Below, one piece after another: positions 8,743 to 14,507 of a stretch of DNA of 20,000 nt. The stretch is from an uncultured virus (IMG/VR IMGVR_UViG_3300050505_000328) (taxonomy: Duplodnaviria; Heunggongvirae; Uroviricota; Caudoviricetes), in IMG/VR virus record IMGVR_UViG_3300050505_000328. One strand, 5' to 3'. A program made the position numbers and the translations under genes. Every line of letters begins with the position of its first letter. Positions within the stretch are counted from its first letter, which is position 1. The notes beneath the pieces are model-generated. The model saw only the letters and a list, made by a program, of their open reading frames with translations. It ran no database searches and was not told the DNA's origin.

Positions 8743-9203
8743 TGATCTTCGCCATCCTTCGTTGGCTCCGCTTCTGGCTCTGGTACAGGCCGCTCGCGCG
8801 CCTGCGACGCCAGAGTCTCTACGTCGACTGGAACCGCGGCGTCGACGACGCGCGCGGCACGCGCGAGGACCCGCTGCGCACGCTCGCTGAGCTGAACCGG
8901 CGCACGCGCGGGTTGGTCCTCCGCGGTGACCTCGTGGTCGAGCTCGACGGCGACTTCTCCGACGAGGACCTCGAGCTGAGCCTCACGACCGCGCGAGGTT
9001 CCATGCTGGTCGTGCGCGGCGGCAAGCCGATAGCTCGTCGCCTGTACATGACGAACGTGAAGACGTTCATGCGCCGGTACTTCAAGGGCGCCGTCTCGGC
9101 GCGCGACTACCCGAACCCGCCAGGTGCGGTGGGTGGCGTGCAAGTAGATGCGACGGTCGAGCGCGCCCGGTTCGAGGCGCTGAGGTTCGGGAGGAAAAAA
9201 TGA
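8742..9203 (+). CDS. Hypothetical protein with a DUF1565-like N-terminal motif
   Basis: TGATG overlap. YVDWNRGVDDARGTREDPLRTL resembles the YV...G.D...GT...P..TI cap motif of parallel beta-helix proteins. Confidence 0.6.
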   Translation: MIFAILRWLRFWLWYRPLARLRRQSLYVDWNRGVDDARGTREDPLRTLAELNRRTRGLVLRGDLVVELDGDFSDEDLELSLTTARGSMLVVRGGKPIARRLYMTNVKTFMRRYFKGAVSARDYPNPPGAVGGVQVDATVERARFEALRFGRKK

Positions 9204-10090
9204 GCTACTGCGACCACAGCGGTTGCCTGAACCGACCGTGCATGGTCTGCACGTGCCGGCGGTGCGACAGCGAACCCGAGAACGAGAAATTTTGGTCCTG
9301 CGCCGACCACGAGGATTCTGTCGCCGAAAGGCACCTACGCATCCGCGACCGAGCCGCAGAATTCAGGAGACTGCCCATGAACAAAGACAAGAACGCCTAC
9401 CGCACACCAGCCGACGAGCCCGAGCCCGAGTGGAAAGAGCTGACGACCTTCGAGGTCGAGGTCTCGAGCCTGGGCCAGAGCGACGGCGTCAAGATGTACG
9501 GACGAGTCAAGAGCATCACCAACTTCGAGCATTCCGTCGGCACGCACGACGAGAGAGCCAAGGCGACGCTGCGCCTCGGCCAGCGCGTGCGCGTGATCCT
9601 GCAGGTGCTGGCCGCGCTCGCCCTCGCGGGCTGCTCCAGCTCGAGTAAGAACGACGAACTGTTTGGGACAGGAGGAACGTATGGCGAAGCATCTGTGGGA
9701 GGCTCTGGAGGCGCTGCTGGTGCGGCTGGTGCTGGCACCGGCGGAGTGGCTGGTGCAGGCGCTGCAGGAGCTCCTGCGGGCGGCGGAGGGGCTGGGGTGG
9801 ACGCTGGCCCGGCCTGCACCGTGATCCAGGTCGTGGGCTCCGTCTACGCGAACAACTGCGGGACGCCGACACCGCTCAACGGCGTGGCCGGTGCCTGCGA
9901 CGGCGAGACCGACTGCACGTACGACTTCGCGTTCGCGGTCGACCCCGGCTTCGACCCCAAGCCCGGCTGCCCCAAGGACCTCACGGTGACGTACCTGTGC
10001 GTCGACGGGCTGGGCGAGACGCGCGGGAGCAAGAGCGCGTACACGCCGCCCGACGCGGCGACGACCAAGCTCGAGTGCGGGTGCTACTGA
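9200..10090 (+). CDS. Composite ORF: Cys-rich N-terminus, internal lipobox, Gly/Ala linker, C-terminal SUEL/Gal-lectin-like domain
   Basis: Internal VILQVLAALALAGC-SSSS; Gly/Ala-rich linker; I.V..S.Y..NC...V...CDG...C...DPKPGCPKDLTVTYLC. Alternative starts at ATG 9377 (AGGAG upstream) and GTG 9587. Confidence 0.65.
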   Translation: MSYCDHSGCLNRPCMVCTCRRCDSEPENEKFWSCADHEDSVAERHLRIRDRAAEFRRLPMNKDKNAYRTPADEPEPEWKELTTFEVEVSSLGQSDGVKMYGRVKSITNFEHSVGTHDERAKATLRLGQRVRVILQVLAALALAGCSSSSKNDELFGTGGTYGEASVGGSGGAAGAAGAGTGGVAGAGAAGAPAGGGGAGVDAGPACTVIQVVGSVYANNCGTPTPLNGVAGACDGETDCTYDFAFAVDPGFDPKPGCPKDLTVTYLCVDGLGETRGSKSAYTPPDAATTKLECGCY

Positions 10091-10329
10091 TGGCCAGCGA
10101 GGAAGTCGTCCCCGGCATCGCCGCGCTCAGGTGCTGGCTCGACGACAAGAAGATCAGCAAGCACCGCTTCGCGCTCGACATCGGCCAGGACCCGAGCGAG
10201 TTCGGCAAGCTCCTGAAGAAGGACGCCGCGCGCGTGTCGGTGGAGCTCGCGTTCAAGATCGAGCGCGCCACGGGCGGCGCGGTCCGAGCAGAGATGTTCG
10301 TGCCGGTGGAGAAAGTGAGCACAACATGA
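10090..10329 (+). CDS. Cro/YdaS-like helix-turn-helix regulator
   Basis: TGATG overlap. ISKHRFALDIGQDPSEFGKLL (HTH) followed by LAFKIERATGGAV. Confidence 0.8.
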   Translation: MASEEVVPGIAALRCWLDDKKISKHRFALDIGQDPSEFGKLLKKDAARVSVELAFKIERATGGAVRAEMFVPVEKVSTT

Positions 10330-10700
10330 GAGACCAATTCGTGAAGCTGGGCGACGCCGAGGTGCGGTTCGCCAAGGTCGTCGCGGTCGTCGCCGTCCCG
10401 GGCAGGGAGACGTCGGACGTCTACTTCGAGGGTGGCGACGCGCGCGTGGAGCTCTTGCCGGACGAAGTCTTCGCCAAGCTCGACGCGGCCGAGAAGCGCT
10501 ACCGACAGGAGCGCGTGATCCTCGACTTCGCATGCCGCGCTGAAACGGCGCGAGCGGAGCTCAGCGAGATTCACGCGAGTCGCGACTACGACCCCCTCCA
10601 TGGACTACTTGTGGCAGCCGAACGGGACCTCTCCCGCGCCGTGCGCGAGTACATGGGCTACGCAACCGAGCCGGCTAACGCGCCGAAGGGGGATCCATGA
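10326..10700 (+). CDS. Hypothetical protein
   Basis: ATGA overlaps at both ends; trimmed from ORF 10131..10700. Confidence 0.75.
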   Translation: MRDQFVKLGDAEVRFAKVVAVVAVPGRETSDVYFEGGDARVELLPDEVFAKLDAAEKRYRQERVILDFACRAETARAELSEIHASRDYDPLHGLLVAAERDLSRAVREYMGYATEPANAPKGDP

Positions 10701-10972
10701 ACTACCGCCTGCTAGCAGCCGTGGCCCTCTCCGCCTGCGCCTCGAGCCAGCCGCCTGAGGCGTGCCCCAAGTGCTACTCGATCGACGAGGTCGCGCCGTA
10801 CGAGCCGCCGCGGCGCATGATCATCCTCTGCGACCAGCCGGACGCGGCCGCGCCCGAGCCGGCCCCCGTCGAGGACGAGGACGCGGGCGAGTGCGGCGCG
10901 AGGTGCGTGCCGCTCGTCGAGCGCGAGTACCCGCCCCCGAAGTCCGACGACCCGTTCGCGCGCGTGTTCTGA
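10697..10972 (+). CDS. Small lipoprotein
   Basis: Signal peptide and lipobox MNYRLLAAVALSA-C; Pro/Cys-rich mature part; AAGGGGG upstream. Confidence 0.7.
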   Translation: MNYRLLAAVALSACASSQPPEACPKCYSIDEVAPYEPPRRMIILCDQPDAAAPEPAPVEDEDAGECGARCVPLVEREYPPPKSDDPFARVF

Positions 10973-11410
10973 GCGACGAACCTATCCAGTGCTCAACGAC
11001 AATCCTGACACCGACCCTTCCCCGGCGACGTACCTGGTCGTTCCGGATCAACACGACGTACCTATCTGAATCCCAACCGTCCTAAGCGACGGACCGCACC
11101 CGAAACGAGCCTGGGCGACAATCCGGATCACGCCAATCCTTTGCGACGATCCGCGCACCGGCGCGACATTCCGAACCCAGCCATCGCTTCGCGACCTACC
11201 TGCCAGTACCAGACCCGCGCGACACTCCGGCCCACCTCACGCCGGATCTTTCCGACGCGACAAGCCCTGACTGACTTCGCCAACGCGACGTACCGTACCG
11301 GACTTGGCCAACGCGACAACCCATGCCCCATCGAGCCCCTCCTCTGCGACGTACTGGCCCAGCTCACACCGCAAGTCTGCGCGACTAACCCATCCAAAAC
11401 GCTTCTAACC
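10973..11410. repeat. Upstream degenerate array: RCGAC anchor plus 5-nt NN-NCC modules (putative guide-RNA array)
   Basis: 15 RCGAC anchors end at 10977, 11000, 11029, 11057, 11090, 11119, 11147, 11167, 11195, 11223, 11261, 11289, 11317, 11350, 11385. Spacings are 23, 29, 28, 33, 29, 28, 20, 28, 28, 38, 28, 28, 33, 35 (10 of 14 are 5n+3). Example unit: gtacc-gtacc-ggact-tggcc-aacgc-gac. Confidence 0.9.
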
Positions 11411-11431
11411 CCAAAAAGAAAAGAGCAGAGC

Positions 11432-12145
11432 ATGAGCAAACTAGACGAGAGATTCGACCCGCGACGCCTGTACGACATCTACCGCGTCACGATCGCCGTA
11501 CGCGACCGCGTGTGCGGCGGCATGCCCAAGAACAAGGAGCTCATCAAGACGTGGGTCGAGTCGACGACCGGCTACGCCGACGAGAAGAGCGAGAAGCTCA
11601 CGCAGGAGAACGCCGAGCTCGTCGTGAACGAGGTCGCCGAGAAGTCGTGGATAGGCTTCCCCGAGGACAAGCAGGGCCTGTTCATCCCCGCGCGCAACGT
11701 CAAGGCCATGCTCAAGCAGTCGGCGTCCCTCCTCGGCGTCACCAAGAAGAAGCTCGGCAGCAAGCAGATCCTCGCCGAGGGCATGGAGGTGAAGGCGGTC
11801 AACGGCCACGACCGGATCTACCTCGGCAAGAAGACGATCGACGGGACGGACGAGAGCGCGATCCACGTCATGACCGCGCAGGGCCCGCGCACCGCGCTCC
11901 GGCGCATGGACTACGTGACGAAGCCGACGCTCACGTTCGAGATCTGGGTCCTCGGCACGGCCGCGCTGGAGAAGCGGCACGTCGGCGAGGCGGAGCTCGT
12001 CGAGATCCTCACGCACGCGCAGGAGAACGGTTGCGGCGCGTCCCGCTCGCAGGGCGAGGGCAAGTTCGACGTGGTCGAGTTCGAGAAGATCAGCACGGGC
12101 AAGGGCATCGCGACCGAGCCCGCGGCGAAGAAGGAGAAGGCGTAG
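11432..12145 (+). CDS. Stand-alone Cas7/Csm3-like RAMP protein (candidate Vipr-like effector), 237 aa
   Basis: N-terminal strand YRVTIAVRDRVCGG; LFIPARNVKAMLKQ (compare IPGSSLKGxxR); DYV..P.LTFEI; C-terminal Gly loop GCGASRSQGEGKFDV. ATG 11432 follows a purine-rich leader. Confidence 0.85.
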   Translation: MSKLDERFDPRRLYDIYRVTIAVRDRVCGGMPKNKELIKTWVESTTGYADEKSEKLTQENAELVVNEVAEKSWIGFPEDKQGLFIPARNVKAMLKQSASLLGVTKKKLGSKQILAEGMEVKAVNGHDRIYLGKKTIDGTDESAIHVMTAQGPRTALRRMDYVTKPTLTFEIWVLGTAALEKRHVGEAELVEILTHAQENGCGASRSQGEGKFDVVEFEKISTGKGIATEPAAKKEKA

Positions 12146-12537
12146 CGACGAACCAGGACAATCCCAGCCAATCCGTGCGACGTGCCATGTCGTTCCGCAC
12201 CCAACCACGCGACATGCCCCCACATGCCCGCCCAAGCCACGCCCTAGCCGACGCGACAATCCCAGACATTCCGAACCACGTCCTCGTCGACACGACAATC
12301 CCAGCCAACTCGTGCGACGTGCCTTTCAGCTCCAACCCGTGACCGCAGCGACGACACTGGCCACTGCTGCGCGCCGCGACTGACCTTACCATGCCGCCCC
12401 ATCGCGACAGACCCCGCCATGCCAAGATCCCGAACGCCCCATCGCGACGATCCGCACCCAAACTTCGCGACGTACCTTGCCACAACTATTCTCAGCGACA
12501 AGCCGGTACCGGCCGAGCCGAGCCAACGCGACCAACC
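12145..12537. repeat. Downstream degenerate array: RCGAC anchor plus 5-nt NN-NCC modules (putative guide-RNA array)
   Basis: 13 RCGAC anchors end at 12149, 12181, 12213, 12257, 12296, 12318, 12352, 12380, 12408, 12448, 12471, 12499, 12532. Spacings are 32, 32, 44, 39, 22, 34, 28, 28, 40, 23, 28, 33. Example unit: tgacc-ttacc-atgcc-gcccc-atcgc-gac. Confidence 0.9.
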
Positions 12538-12550
12538 AAGGAGACGACCG

Positions 12551-12940
12551 ATGGAAGAGACCGACGAGGACATGATCAAGGAGTGGGTGGCCGCCTGCGC
12601 CATCCACCTAGCCGACACGATCGAGCAACTGATCGTCGTGTCGTACGCGCACATCGAGGCGCTGCCCGAGGACGAGCAGGCGGAGTTCAAGCGCAGGCTC
12701 CTGAACGCGCTCGAGTGCAGGGTCCTCGACCTGGCGTCGCGCGTCACCGTGGCGATGCTCGCCGAGAACGGCGAAACGATCGGGGACGTGATCGGTCACT
12801 TCACCGACCACGCCGTGGCGGCCCACAACTTCCAGCTCCGCGAGATGAACCCGCTCAACCGGATCCTCAACTCGGTGTTCGAGCACGTCGAGCGCGTGGC
12901 CACGGACCGGGCCGCGAAGCGCCACAGCGAGGGGAACTGA
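12551..12940 (+). CDS. Helical hypothetical protein
   Basis: AAGGAG at 12538-12543 before ATG 12551; trimmed from ORF 12419..12940. Confidence 0.8.
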   Translation: MEETDEDMIKEWVAACAIHLADTIEQLIVVSYAHIEALPEDEQAEFKRRLLNALECRVLDLASRVTVAMLAENGETIGDVIGHFTDHAVAAHNFQLREMNPLNRILNSVFEHVERVATDRAAKRHSEGN

Positions 12941-12942
12941 CA

Positions 12943-13500
12943 ATGGCATTGCCCGAAAGAATCCAGACCGAGCAGGACGTCGAGGACGTCTACGAGCACT
13001 TCGAGGTCGAGGCGAACCGCTACGTGCAGATGCGCCTGGCTCGAGACGAGCTCAACGACTTTCAAGGAAGATTCTTCATCAGTCCTGGTGACCTGCGATT
13101 CGCCTCCGACGACGAGGTCCGCGAGCTCAAGCGGTACCTGAACGACGGTGATCGAGACATCTGGTTCGCGCGTGGAGCTCTAAACCAGGTCCAGAGCCTG
13201 GCGAAGATCGTCGGGCTGACGCGAGACAGTCTGGACCCGATCAAAAAGAGCCTCGTCATCAATGAGCACATCCGCTGCTCGCTGAGCGACCTCGTCCTCT
13301 CGCTGCGAATGTTCAAGCCTGCGGTCGAGGCCCTGACTCTGTGGCGCCGCAACCACAACGTGCTCGCGAAGGTGTTCGAGATCCACACCATGCAGTGGCT
13401 GCACGAGCCGAACGAGCAACTCGACGGGCAGAAACCGGAAGAGCTGCTGAACGACGACGCCGGACTGACTCGCCTCGAGTCCCTGCTGGGGATCCGATGA
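12943..13500 (+). CDS. Protein with C-terminal Xre/MbcA/ParS (DUF2384-type) antitoxin domain
   Basis: C-terminus VLAKVFE...QWLHEPNEQLDGQKPEELLNDDAGLTRLESLLG matches W-L-x-x-P-N-x-x-L-x-G-x-x-P-x-x-L-L...G; GAGGGG RBS. Confidence 0.7.
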   Translation: MALPERIQTEQDVEDVYEHFEVEANRYVQMRLARDELNDFQGRFFISPGDLRFASDDEVRELKRYLNDGDRDIWFARGALNQVQSLAKIVGLTRDSLDPIKKSLVINEHIRCSLSDLVLSLRMFKPAVEALTLWRRNHNVLAKVFEIHTMQWLHEPNEQLDGQKPEELLNDDAGLTRLESLLGIR

Positions 13501-13676
13501 TCCCCTGGAACGACATGGACGAGCGCGAGCGCGCGGTCTGGAGCGCGGCCTACGGAGCCGCGTTCATGACGTACCAATACGAGAGGGAAGAAGCTCAGTT
13601 GGAAGACTCGGTCGAGATGGCCGACCGAGCCGTGCACGCGCTGCGCGAGGCGACGAAGAAGGATCCGTATCGATGA
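13497..13676 (+). CDS. Small hypothetical protein
   Basis: ATGA overlaps at both ends. Confidence 0.65.
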   Translation: MIPWNDMDERERAVWSAAYGAAFMTYQYEREEAQLEDSVEMADRAVHALREATKKDPYR

Positions 13677-13876
13677 ACGACGAAGCACTAGAGAAGGACT
13701 GGACCGTCGGTGAGGACGGGCGGTTCAACAGCTCGGCCGAGTTCGAGCGCCTGGTCGGCGTCGTGGAGCAGCTACTGCGCGACCATCGCCTCGGTGACAG
13801 CGTCCGGATGCGAGCCGGGCTCATCATCGCGCAGCTCACGCACGAGCACGGGCTGGTGCCGAGGAGTTCGAAGTGA
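13673..13876 (+). CDS. Small hypothetical protein
   Basis: ATGA overlap; AAGGA upstream. Confidence 0.7.
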   Translation: MNDEALEKDWTVGEDGRFNSSAEFERLVGVVEQLLRDHRLGDSVRMRAGLIIAQLTHEHGLVPRSSK

Positions 13877-14304
13877 GACCCCTGCTCGTCGGCGAGGCGA
13901 ACCCGTACCAGTCCGACCCGCGCCTCGCGCAGCGCTACGCGCTCTACCCGAACCCGCCGCGCTGCGCCGGCTGGAATCTCTGCCACACGATCATGCAGCT
14001 CGACGAGGGCGAGTACCTGCGACGTTTCGACCGCGTGAACCTGTGCGACGGGAAGTGGGCGATGAAGGCCGCACGAGAGCGAGCGTCGGCGTACCGAGTC
14101 GCTGACCTGCCGGAGCGGATCATCCTGTTCGGCGCGAAGGTCTGCAAAGCGTTCGACTTCGAGTACAGGCCGTTCACGCGGCCCAGCCACCGGTACGACC
14201 GCTACGTCATCCTCCCCCACCCGTCCGGGCTCTCGCGCGCGTGGAACGAGCCGGGCGCGCACGAGCGGGCGCGGGCGGTGCTGAAGGAAGCGGGGGTGTT
14301 GTGA
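13873..14304 (+). CDS. Uracil-DNA glycosylase superfamily protein (minimal)
   Basis: Motif A-like LLVGEANP, central VNLC, IILFGAKV, motif B LPHPSG; GAGGAG RBS; GTGA overlap. Confidence 0.8.
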   Translation: MRPLLVGEANPYQSDPRLAQRYALYPNPPRCAGWNLCHTIMQLDEGEYLRRFDRVNLCDGKWAMKAARERASAYRVADLPERIILFGAKVCKAFDFEYRPFTRPSHRYDRYVILPHPSGLSRAWNEPGAHERARAVLKEAGVL

Positions 14305-14507
14305 AAAGAAAAGGCAAGCGCCCACGACTCCGCATCGGCTACCGCACGCTCGCGAAGATCAAAGCCGCGCTCCGTGCCGCCGAACTGCGTGACTGCGGTG
14401 TCGAAGACGAGCACCAGCACGCGATGAAGATCTACCTCGACACGTGGGTCGTGCGTCGACTTCAAACAGCGATACGCGAGATCGAAGGCAAGGAGACCGC
14501 TTCATGA
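14301..14507 (+). CDS. Small basic hypothetical protein
   Basis: GTGA and ATGA overlaps at its ends. Confidence 0.65.
   Translation: MKRKGKRPRLRIGYRTLAKIKAALRAAELRDCGVEDEHQHAMKIYLDTWVVRRLQTAIREIEGKETAS

Follow-up and report, generated by a model that had tools for sequence, protein, structure and literature searches.

The 20,000-nucleotide (nt) stretch analysed here, called the window, comes from the 97,101-base record of an uncultured virus of the Caudoviricetes, a soil phage (IMGVR_UViG_3300050505_000328). Within a block of phage replication genes, it carries a self-contained cassette of the VIPR type, consisting of a single gene for a Cas7-like protein, Vipr, and two arrays of short guide units. 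The locus has a short-unit, head-to-tail form and lacks the pyrimidine that follows GG in the published systems. Sequence comparison suggests that the guides may be C-rich RNAs cut from the mRNA of the vipr strand, a mirror of the published GG code; we regard this reading as evenly poised between right and wrong.

The following features of VIPR should be noted, since the locus is compared with them below. According to two preprints of 2026, a lone phage-borne RAMP protein (Vipr) polymerises on a vrRNA composed of 9–16 YNNGG repeats and a fixed 3′ tail (10.64898/2026.04.26.720920). GGY is hidden and NN is exposed, and NN pairs with DNA with every third base skipped (10.64898/2026.04.26.720920, 10.64898/2026.04.26.720927). 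The GGY/NN pattern given for VIPR in an earlier note on this DNA agrees with this description. The first of these preprints also describes seven types, NNNGG, YNNNG and NNNNG variants, and "staggered" head-to-tail arrays (fig. S18 and methods; 10.64898/2026.04.26.720920). The small-RNA sequencing reported there confirmed only the ribozyme-interspersed and single-vrRNA forms, not the staggered arrays (10.64898/2026.04.26.720920).

A Cas7-like protein between two pentamer arrays

The features of the locus are listed in the table. The 237-amino acid (aa) protein has a Cas7-like RAMP fold, as judged from its predicted structure. The AlphaFold2 model, calculated with an alignment of 38 relatives, has a predicted local distance difference test score (pLDDT) of 87.6 and a predicted template modelling score (pTM) of 0.81. 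A Foldseek search of the PDB gives 131 matches at E ≤ 0.001, the best of which are Cas7 of type VII and Csm3/Cmr4 of type III (E 3.6e-7). The protein thus most resembles the Cas7 subunits that form the filaments of class 1 CRISPR systems. The fold-level tie to phage RAMP proteins comes through BFVD only, where the best match is a phage "RAMP superfamily protein" (E 2.9e-12). Cas7 backbone filaments and VIPR share the principle of one protomer per fixed guide step. The present locus differs from class 1 CRISPR in that it has neither CRISPR repeats nor a multi-gene cas operon, and in that the step is 5 bases, not 6.

Table. Coordinates of the cassette and of the adjoining genes in the window.
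Feature	Position	Strand	Description
array 1	10973..11431	+ (C-rich strand)	15 [GA]CGAC anchors, each followed by in-phase NNNCC pentamers and ~3 spare bases
vipr-like gene	11432..12145	+	237-aa lone Cas7-like RAMP, from predicted fold and structure matches
array 2	12145..12550	+ (C-rich strand)	~13 anchors, from phase and motif counts
upstream 91-aa gene	10697..10972	+	signal-peptide-like N-terminus; context only, TGA (10970-10972) adjoins the first anchor of array 1
downstream 129-aa gene	12551..12940	+	position where a vap accessory gene would sit; no tie to the system

At the sequence level, PADLOC gives a weak match to Csm4 (E 2e-5) over residues 160–221, the glycine-rich C-terminal part, and the alignment of relatives contains an invariant glycine-rich stretch near residues 197–212. 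Together with the model and the Cas7 matches, this agrees with the RRM core, glycine-rich loop and thumb of a lone VIPR-type RAMP. The protein belongs to no Pfam or PHROG family, and a sequence search of the PDB using the family profile gives matches at chance level only. There is no detectable sequence similarity to the Vipr of Escherichia phage SUSP1 (hhalign probability 0.6%, not significant), and a cluster look-up gave no accessions tying the family to the published Vipr seed proteins. Relatives are numerous. A word-indexed search finds 182, a few of them labelled Csm4 or RAMP by their source, and an exhaustive search finds 1,436 clusters at 50% identity (E ≤ 1e-3).

Both arrays are non-coding, and together they flank the vipr gene. 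In array 1, GCGACGAACC at 10973-10982 directly follows the TGA of the upstream gene (10970-10972). In array 2, the same sequence occupies 12145-12154, and its first base is the G of the vipr stop codon TAG (12143-12145). The claim of the earlier note that both arrays open at a stop codon with one shared sequence is therefore confirmed, and each array also runs up to the leader of the next gene, as that note described. The last unit of array 1 fades into a short A-rich vipr leader, so that the array ends ~20 nt ahead of the vipr ATG (11432). Array 2 ends at the ribosome site AAGGAG, before the ATG at 12551, and its last anchor (12528) has one pentamer only ahead of this site, resembling a closing repeat. 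The units of array 1 are spaced by 28 nt in 6 of the 14 intervals and by 33 nt in two.

The motif GCGAC-NNN-CC, GCGACNNNCC, occurs 30 times in the window, compared with 11.8 expected (standard deviation 3.25). The arrays make up ~4% of the window, and they hold 23 of the 30 copies on the + strand (12 in 10973-11390 and 11 in 12145-12537). When 30 [GA]CGAC anchors are aligned, C is found at positions +8 and +9 in 27 cases each. C recurs at the 5-base spacing at +13/14, +18/19 and +23/24, and likewise ahead of the anchor at −4/−5, −9/−10 and −14/−15. In the arrays of the window, the phase is broken by three bases at every anchor. Such a pattern might be regarded as a compositional or chance artefact of C-rich intergenic DNA, considering the high G+C content (65.9% in the window). 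This explanation is refuted by shuffling, in which none of 200 shuffles reached 30 copies and the largest count was 20, and by the fact that the 5-base phase is found again next to homologous genes, with protein identities as low as 30%, in 59 of 87 loci; we give it practically no credence. The fold and the phase together support the general frame of the earlier note, a Cas7-like protein with pentamer-coded guide arrays that lack hairpin repeats of the Cas6 type.

One 5-base GG signal in the window (9719-9812) is false. It lies in a Gly/Ala-rich coding stretch (9660-9830, in the open reading frame 9200-10090), and it was rejected as an array because it sits in the coding frame. No further arrays were found elsewhere in the 97-kb genome.

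No promoter, terminator or hairpin repeat is evident at the arrays, in agreement with the earlier note. A consensus scan of 9000-14500 gave no sigma-70-like promoter and a single terminator-like site, which is located within vipr on the minus strand; this is fewer than in shuffles. Neither strand of array 1 folds better than shuffled sequences (z +0.21 and −0.33). A repeat search found no hairpin-forming repeats in the window and no long direct repeats with spacers. No Rfam family reaches its gathering score in the window and 19 loci (123,933 bases in total), no tRNA was found, and the hammerhead core motif does not occur inside the arrays.

The code across the family and in known VIPR systems

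The loci of the relatives were drawn from genomes, viral contigs and metagenomes, and fetched loci are designated by L-numbers. A unit consists of an anchor pentamer ending in GAC, 4–7 NNNCC pentamers and ~3 bases. Of 472 anchor spacings from 53 loci, 289 accordingly take the form 5k+3, and the distribution peaks at 28, 33 and 38. Across 811 anchors in the family, the second C is present at a frequency of 0.86–0.93 and the three middle positions are near-random. The 3,028 free triplets are also near random, with no preference for purine or pyrimidine. Since all three positions are free, the NN-NCC register of the earlier note is better written NNNCC. Within the fixed pair, the 3′ C is better kept than the 5′ C (0.874 vs 0.738, n = 2219), a bias that agrees with the degenerate forms YNNNG and NNNNG given in the VIPR preprint.

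The anchors vary among the loci, all ending in GAC. GCGAC is one example; another is longer and ends in TGCGAC, and that of L014 has 10 bases and is AT-rich. GAACC is a common first pentamer throughout the family, and for this reason the opening 10-mer shared by the two arrays in the window is not peculiar to array starts. The placement of the first anchor on a stop codon, on the other hand, is general across the family. In 22 of 45 loci, no more than 5 nt separate the vipr stop codon from the first GAC anchor, or the two overlap, and in 14 of those 22 the TGA stop codon is part of a TGAC anchor. Upstream arrays end ≤33 nt ahead of the vipr start in 21 of 30 cases. Where both flanks of the gene are at least 500 nt long (44 loci), the array is upstream only in 14, downstream only in 15, on both sides in seven and undetected in eight.

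Several loci should be mentioned individually. Giant arrays of 1.6–2.1 kb, with ~50 or more units, lie by single vipr genes in L010 (4041-5668), L055/L141 (2990-4715) and L076 (670-2763). In L014 (3650-3960), a relative of low G+C content (44%), the first anchor overlaps the vipr stop codon, and the AT-rich anchor, which ends in TTGAC, holds hexamers resembling −10 and −35 elements. The Microcystis phage Mae-JY09 (L105; PP395641, 2465-3600), a cultured cyanophage, has a family member with 30% identity. Its vipr TGA is directly followed by a GCGAC anchor, and the C-rich array lies on the gene strand and ends in a 13-bp hairpin.

The window fits the VIPR class, with a lone RAMP in a phage, no CRISPR array, and pentamer arrays on both sides of the gene. 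As in type II VIPR (Escherichia phage SUSP1 and a Pseudomonas fulva prophage), the lone small Cas7-like RAMP is phage-borne, neither a CRISPR array nor other cas genes accompany it, and the gene is flanked on both sides by long intergenic tracts of 5-base repeats that combine a fixed pair with hypervariable bases. The two differ in the code and in the units. The vipr strand has CC as its fixed pair here and GG in type II, and the base after GG, when the minus strand is read, is a pyrimidine in 52–54% of cases here and in 91% in type II. Each unit contains 4–7 pentamers instead of 9–16, and a 5-base anchor without structure takes the place of the structured tail of ~40 nt. There is no promoter for each unit, whereas the vrRNAs of SUSP1 are preceded by promoter-like boxes, as read from its sequence, and no conserved accessory gene is present. 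The fixed GGY of the canonical code is absent from the RNA strand; only the looser NNNGG fits, provided that the RNA is made from the minus strand.

A close published arrangement of units is that of the staggered vrRNA arrays in 10.64898/2026.04.26.720920, in which the arrays are head-to-tail and the end of one unit marks the start of the next, as here; the motif on the minus strand here is NNNGG. Ribozyme-interspersed arrays (VIPR types I and V) are different, since no hammerhead ribozymes were found between the units here. A six-repeat vrRNA is reported to be functional in another preprint (10.64898/2026.10.15.759431), which makes units of 4–7 pentamers plausible as guides. A Vipr-like fold beside 5-base arrays that do not follow GGY is also found in the non-canonical VIPR-like clusters GAC/NN, CAC/NN, WGT/NN and TGH/NN (10.64898/2026.10.21.760802), which shows that the fixed motif can change. 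CC is not among the examples in the accessible part of that report, however, and the sequences are described there as "reoriented", in a manner that this part does not state.

Strand of the guides

The C-rich strand is strictly coupled to the coding strand of vipr across the family. The earlier note had proposed comparing the orientation of array and gene across homologous loci, and in this comparison of 87 non-redundant loci vipr is encoded on the C-periodic strand in 59 and on the G-periodic strand in none. The remaining 28 are below the periodicity threshold on both strands, many of them having short flanks. A scan of viral contigs by the array pattern alone gave 17 loci. A vipr relative adjoins the array in 16 of them and is in every case encoded on the C strand, and the 17th contains neither an array nor vipr. 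Solo arrays away from vipr, which would serve as an orientation test, do not occur among these 17 matches. In SUSP1, the vipr gene (28474-29061, minus) and the GG-periodic tracts are on one strand, and the G strand is the vipr strand in all nine type II relatives examined (24 fetched), in one of them weakly. The rule where the guide strand has been tested is therefore that it is the vipr strand.

The contacts between array and gene lead in the same direction. The arrays touch the stop or start codon of vipr, leaving no room for antisense promoters, and where an array lies upstream, vipr must be transcribed through it. Plus-strand promoter-like sites precede the array at two loci. L075 has TTGACG-17-TATAAT (11 of 12 consensus positions), and L050 has TTGACA-17-TAAGGT, from which the expected start falls at the first anchor; the latter is below the threshold of the scan tool. 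In L091 and L015, strong hairpins are found 3–30 nt past downstream arrays that face convergent genes. The region 158-345 of L075 may in addition encode a regulatory RNA, as the promoter is followed by a leader of ~170 nt with a long inverted repeat and then by a two-unit array and vipr.

Of the two possibilities left by the earlier note, guides from a polycistronic + strand transcript and antisense guides, the former is thus favoured comparatively, by the strand coupling in the 59 loci and in all 16 pattern matches, the contact with stop and start codons and the plus-strand promoter-like sites at two loci. The antisense option still fits the NNNGG layout. In the latter, the same VIPR-type cassette would produce G-rich guides from the minus strand, antisense to vipr, as NNNGG tracts ending in GUCGC in a staggered head-to-tail array. 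We consider this possible and to be taken seriously, although on balance doubtful. It agrees with the fixed pair, which is GG in all tested VIPRs according to the accessible preprint text, where NNNGG is listed as a variant, and it places the anchor at the 3′ end of the unit, like the tail in SUSP1. However, it needs an antisense promoter at nearly every locus, located either in neighbours that are not conserved or in the variable first codons of vipr, and no promoter was detected in the window. A scan of the array edges (−35 matching in at least 5 of 6 positions and −10 TANNNT; ~14–16 kb on each side) gave two minus-strand matches at right edges against two plus-strand matches at left edges. 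Antisense guides would moreover be able to pair over their full length with the leader and trailer of the vipr mRNA. Free-standing array units would not be expected to leave the G strand on the vipr strand in 0 of 87 loci, and the hairpins in L091 and L015 adjoin what would be the promoter side.

Several observations weigh against C-rich guides from the vipr strand. In L004 (3651-3700), a hairpin followed by six T, which has the form of a + strand terminator, lies between the vipr stop codon and the first anchor of the downstream array, and strong hairpins occupy the corresponding place in ~8 further loci. Co-transcription in its simple form thus does not apply to every locus, and these terminator-like hairpins are compatible with antisense guides. 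The element in L004 is a terminator or an attenuator; as the latter, it may determine how much array RNA is made relative to the protein message. In L141 (record G001), ~25 canonical GGC/NN pentamers are found at 21-160 on the vipr strand, preceded by GTCGC, which again is as antisense guides would have it. A repeat-rich tail follows this tract, and the family vipr lies 2 kb downstream. The tract may serve another system as a solo guide, or it may form the edge of a second cassette in inverted orientation; the latter is possible because the contig, 73% complete, starts at this point. At the right edge of the L014 array, an extended −10-like motif is seen by eye on the minus strand, though it is not listed by the scan tool. 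All vrRNAs shown experimentally in the accessible text of the two preprints have GG (10.64898/2026.04.26.720920, 10.64898/2026.04.26.720927), and NNNGG on the minus strand with a fixed 3′ element corresponds to a variant motif and layout given in the former. A switch to exactly the complementary dinucleotide is, as a coincidence, suspicious.

Searches for targets also gave nothing in favour of C-rich guides. Exact matching of 84 runs of at least six pentamers against 522 kb of local DNA, allowing skips of 0, 1 or 2 bases, found only a poly-C self match, which is a weak test. Two exact scans of viral contigs with the longest unit of the window gave no match, and this is likewise a weak test owing to the small databases. 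Under the two-base-per-step rule of type II, which leaves 14 fixed bases, chance matches are estimated to number in the hundreds.

Further properties were tried and rejected. Sigma-70-type promoters are too few, and both minus-strand matches at right edges come from L016 and L022, which are near-duplicate loci. At the array edges, canonical terminators number four in total and are of mixed orientation. The pyrimidine beside GG is lacking in both readings. As a test of codon register, the depletion of stop triplets among the free triplets amounts to 78 vs 105 expected on the + strand and 69 vs 80 on the complement; TGA is enriched and all triplets containing TA are low, so that this depletion is only an avoidance of TA. 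The asymmetry of the fixed pair in type II is too weak to be used as a yardstick (0.88 vs 0.92).

The arrays might also not be guides but a cis-regulatory leader or trailer to which Vipr binds so as to control its own mRNA, or decoys that soak up the Vipr of a rival phage. Their location in untranslated parts of the vipr mRNA would suit such a role, decoy "solo vrRNAs" of satellites are described in 10.64898/2026.10.15.759431, and no target was found in the local DNA or in the viral-contig scans. On the other hand, the free positions are near-random and differ among units and relatives, as expected of guides and not of a fixed operator, and arrays of 1.6–2.1 kb in some relatives are too long for a plain leader. 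We consider this explanation improbable.

If the guides are indeed C-rich and read from the vipr strand, the cassette could work as follows. Both arrays would be transcribed together with vipr in one + strand RNA, as a 5′ leader and a 3′ trailer. Vipr protomers would coat the C-rich tracts, one for each pentamer, holding the two C and leaving the three free bases exposed. Either Vipr itself or RNases of the host would then trim the linkers left unprotected at the anchors, without need of a hairpin of the Cas6 type, and this trimming, presumably a cut at RCGAC, would release RNAs of ~23–43 nt that start at the anchor. As published for GGY/NN VIPR, the resulting filaments would then bind to matching DNA in rival phages or mobile elements and so silence it. 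Extending this to the family, we tentatively suggest, a little short of even confidence, that the large Vipr-like branch of 1,436 50%-identity clusters reads C-based guides with CC and three free bases per step. These would be cut at GAC anchors from the untranslated ends of its own mRNA, without promoters, hairpin repeats or Cas6, making up a mirror-image, three-letter version of the GGY/NN code.

Neighbouring genes and implications

Nearly all genes in the window are on the + strand. A DNA helicase, a methyltransferase and a primase-like protein (PHROGs) surround the locus. No cas genes were found among the window neighbours by Pfam, PHROG and PADLOC, nor was a CRISPR array or a Cas5, Cas6 or Cas10 protein. 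The upstream 91-aa gene matches no Pfam, PHROG or PADLOC family, the downstream 129-aa gene matches none significantly, and neither has a relative at the other vipr loci (for the upstream gene, those fetched). Two genes downstream of vipr, at 12943-13500, a 185-aa protein carries a C-terminal toxin-binding domain of the Xre/MbcA/ParS antitoxin type (PF09722, E 2e-6). None of the 10 neighbouring proteins in the window recurs at other vipr loci. Vipr and the arrays therefore travel as a cassette, which cannot depend on the promoter of a neighbour.

VIPR is a class of RNA-guided DNA binders only months old, the rules of which have been worked out on one type. The branch described here is widespread in soil phages, and the comparative data suggest C-rich guides on the sense strand, without deciding the matter. 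Mae-JY09 offers a natural cultured system in which the guide strand could be tested. If the guides prove antisense instead, this would be the first family whose guide arrays are obligatorily transcribed against the effector gene, which would need an explanation of its own. If C-rich guides do lie within the mRNA of their own effector, the fixed letters of the code would be evolvable, and there would be a second scaffold, in which each protomer offers three programmable bases. The promoter-free design, in which array, gene and array form a single transcript, would then also be attractive for engineering.

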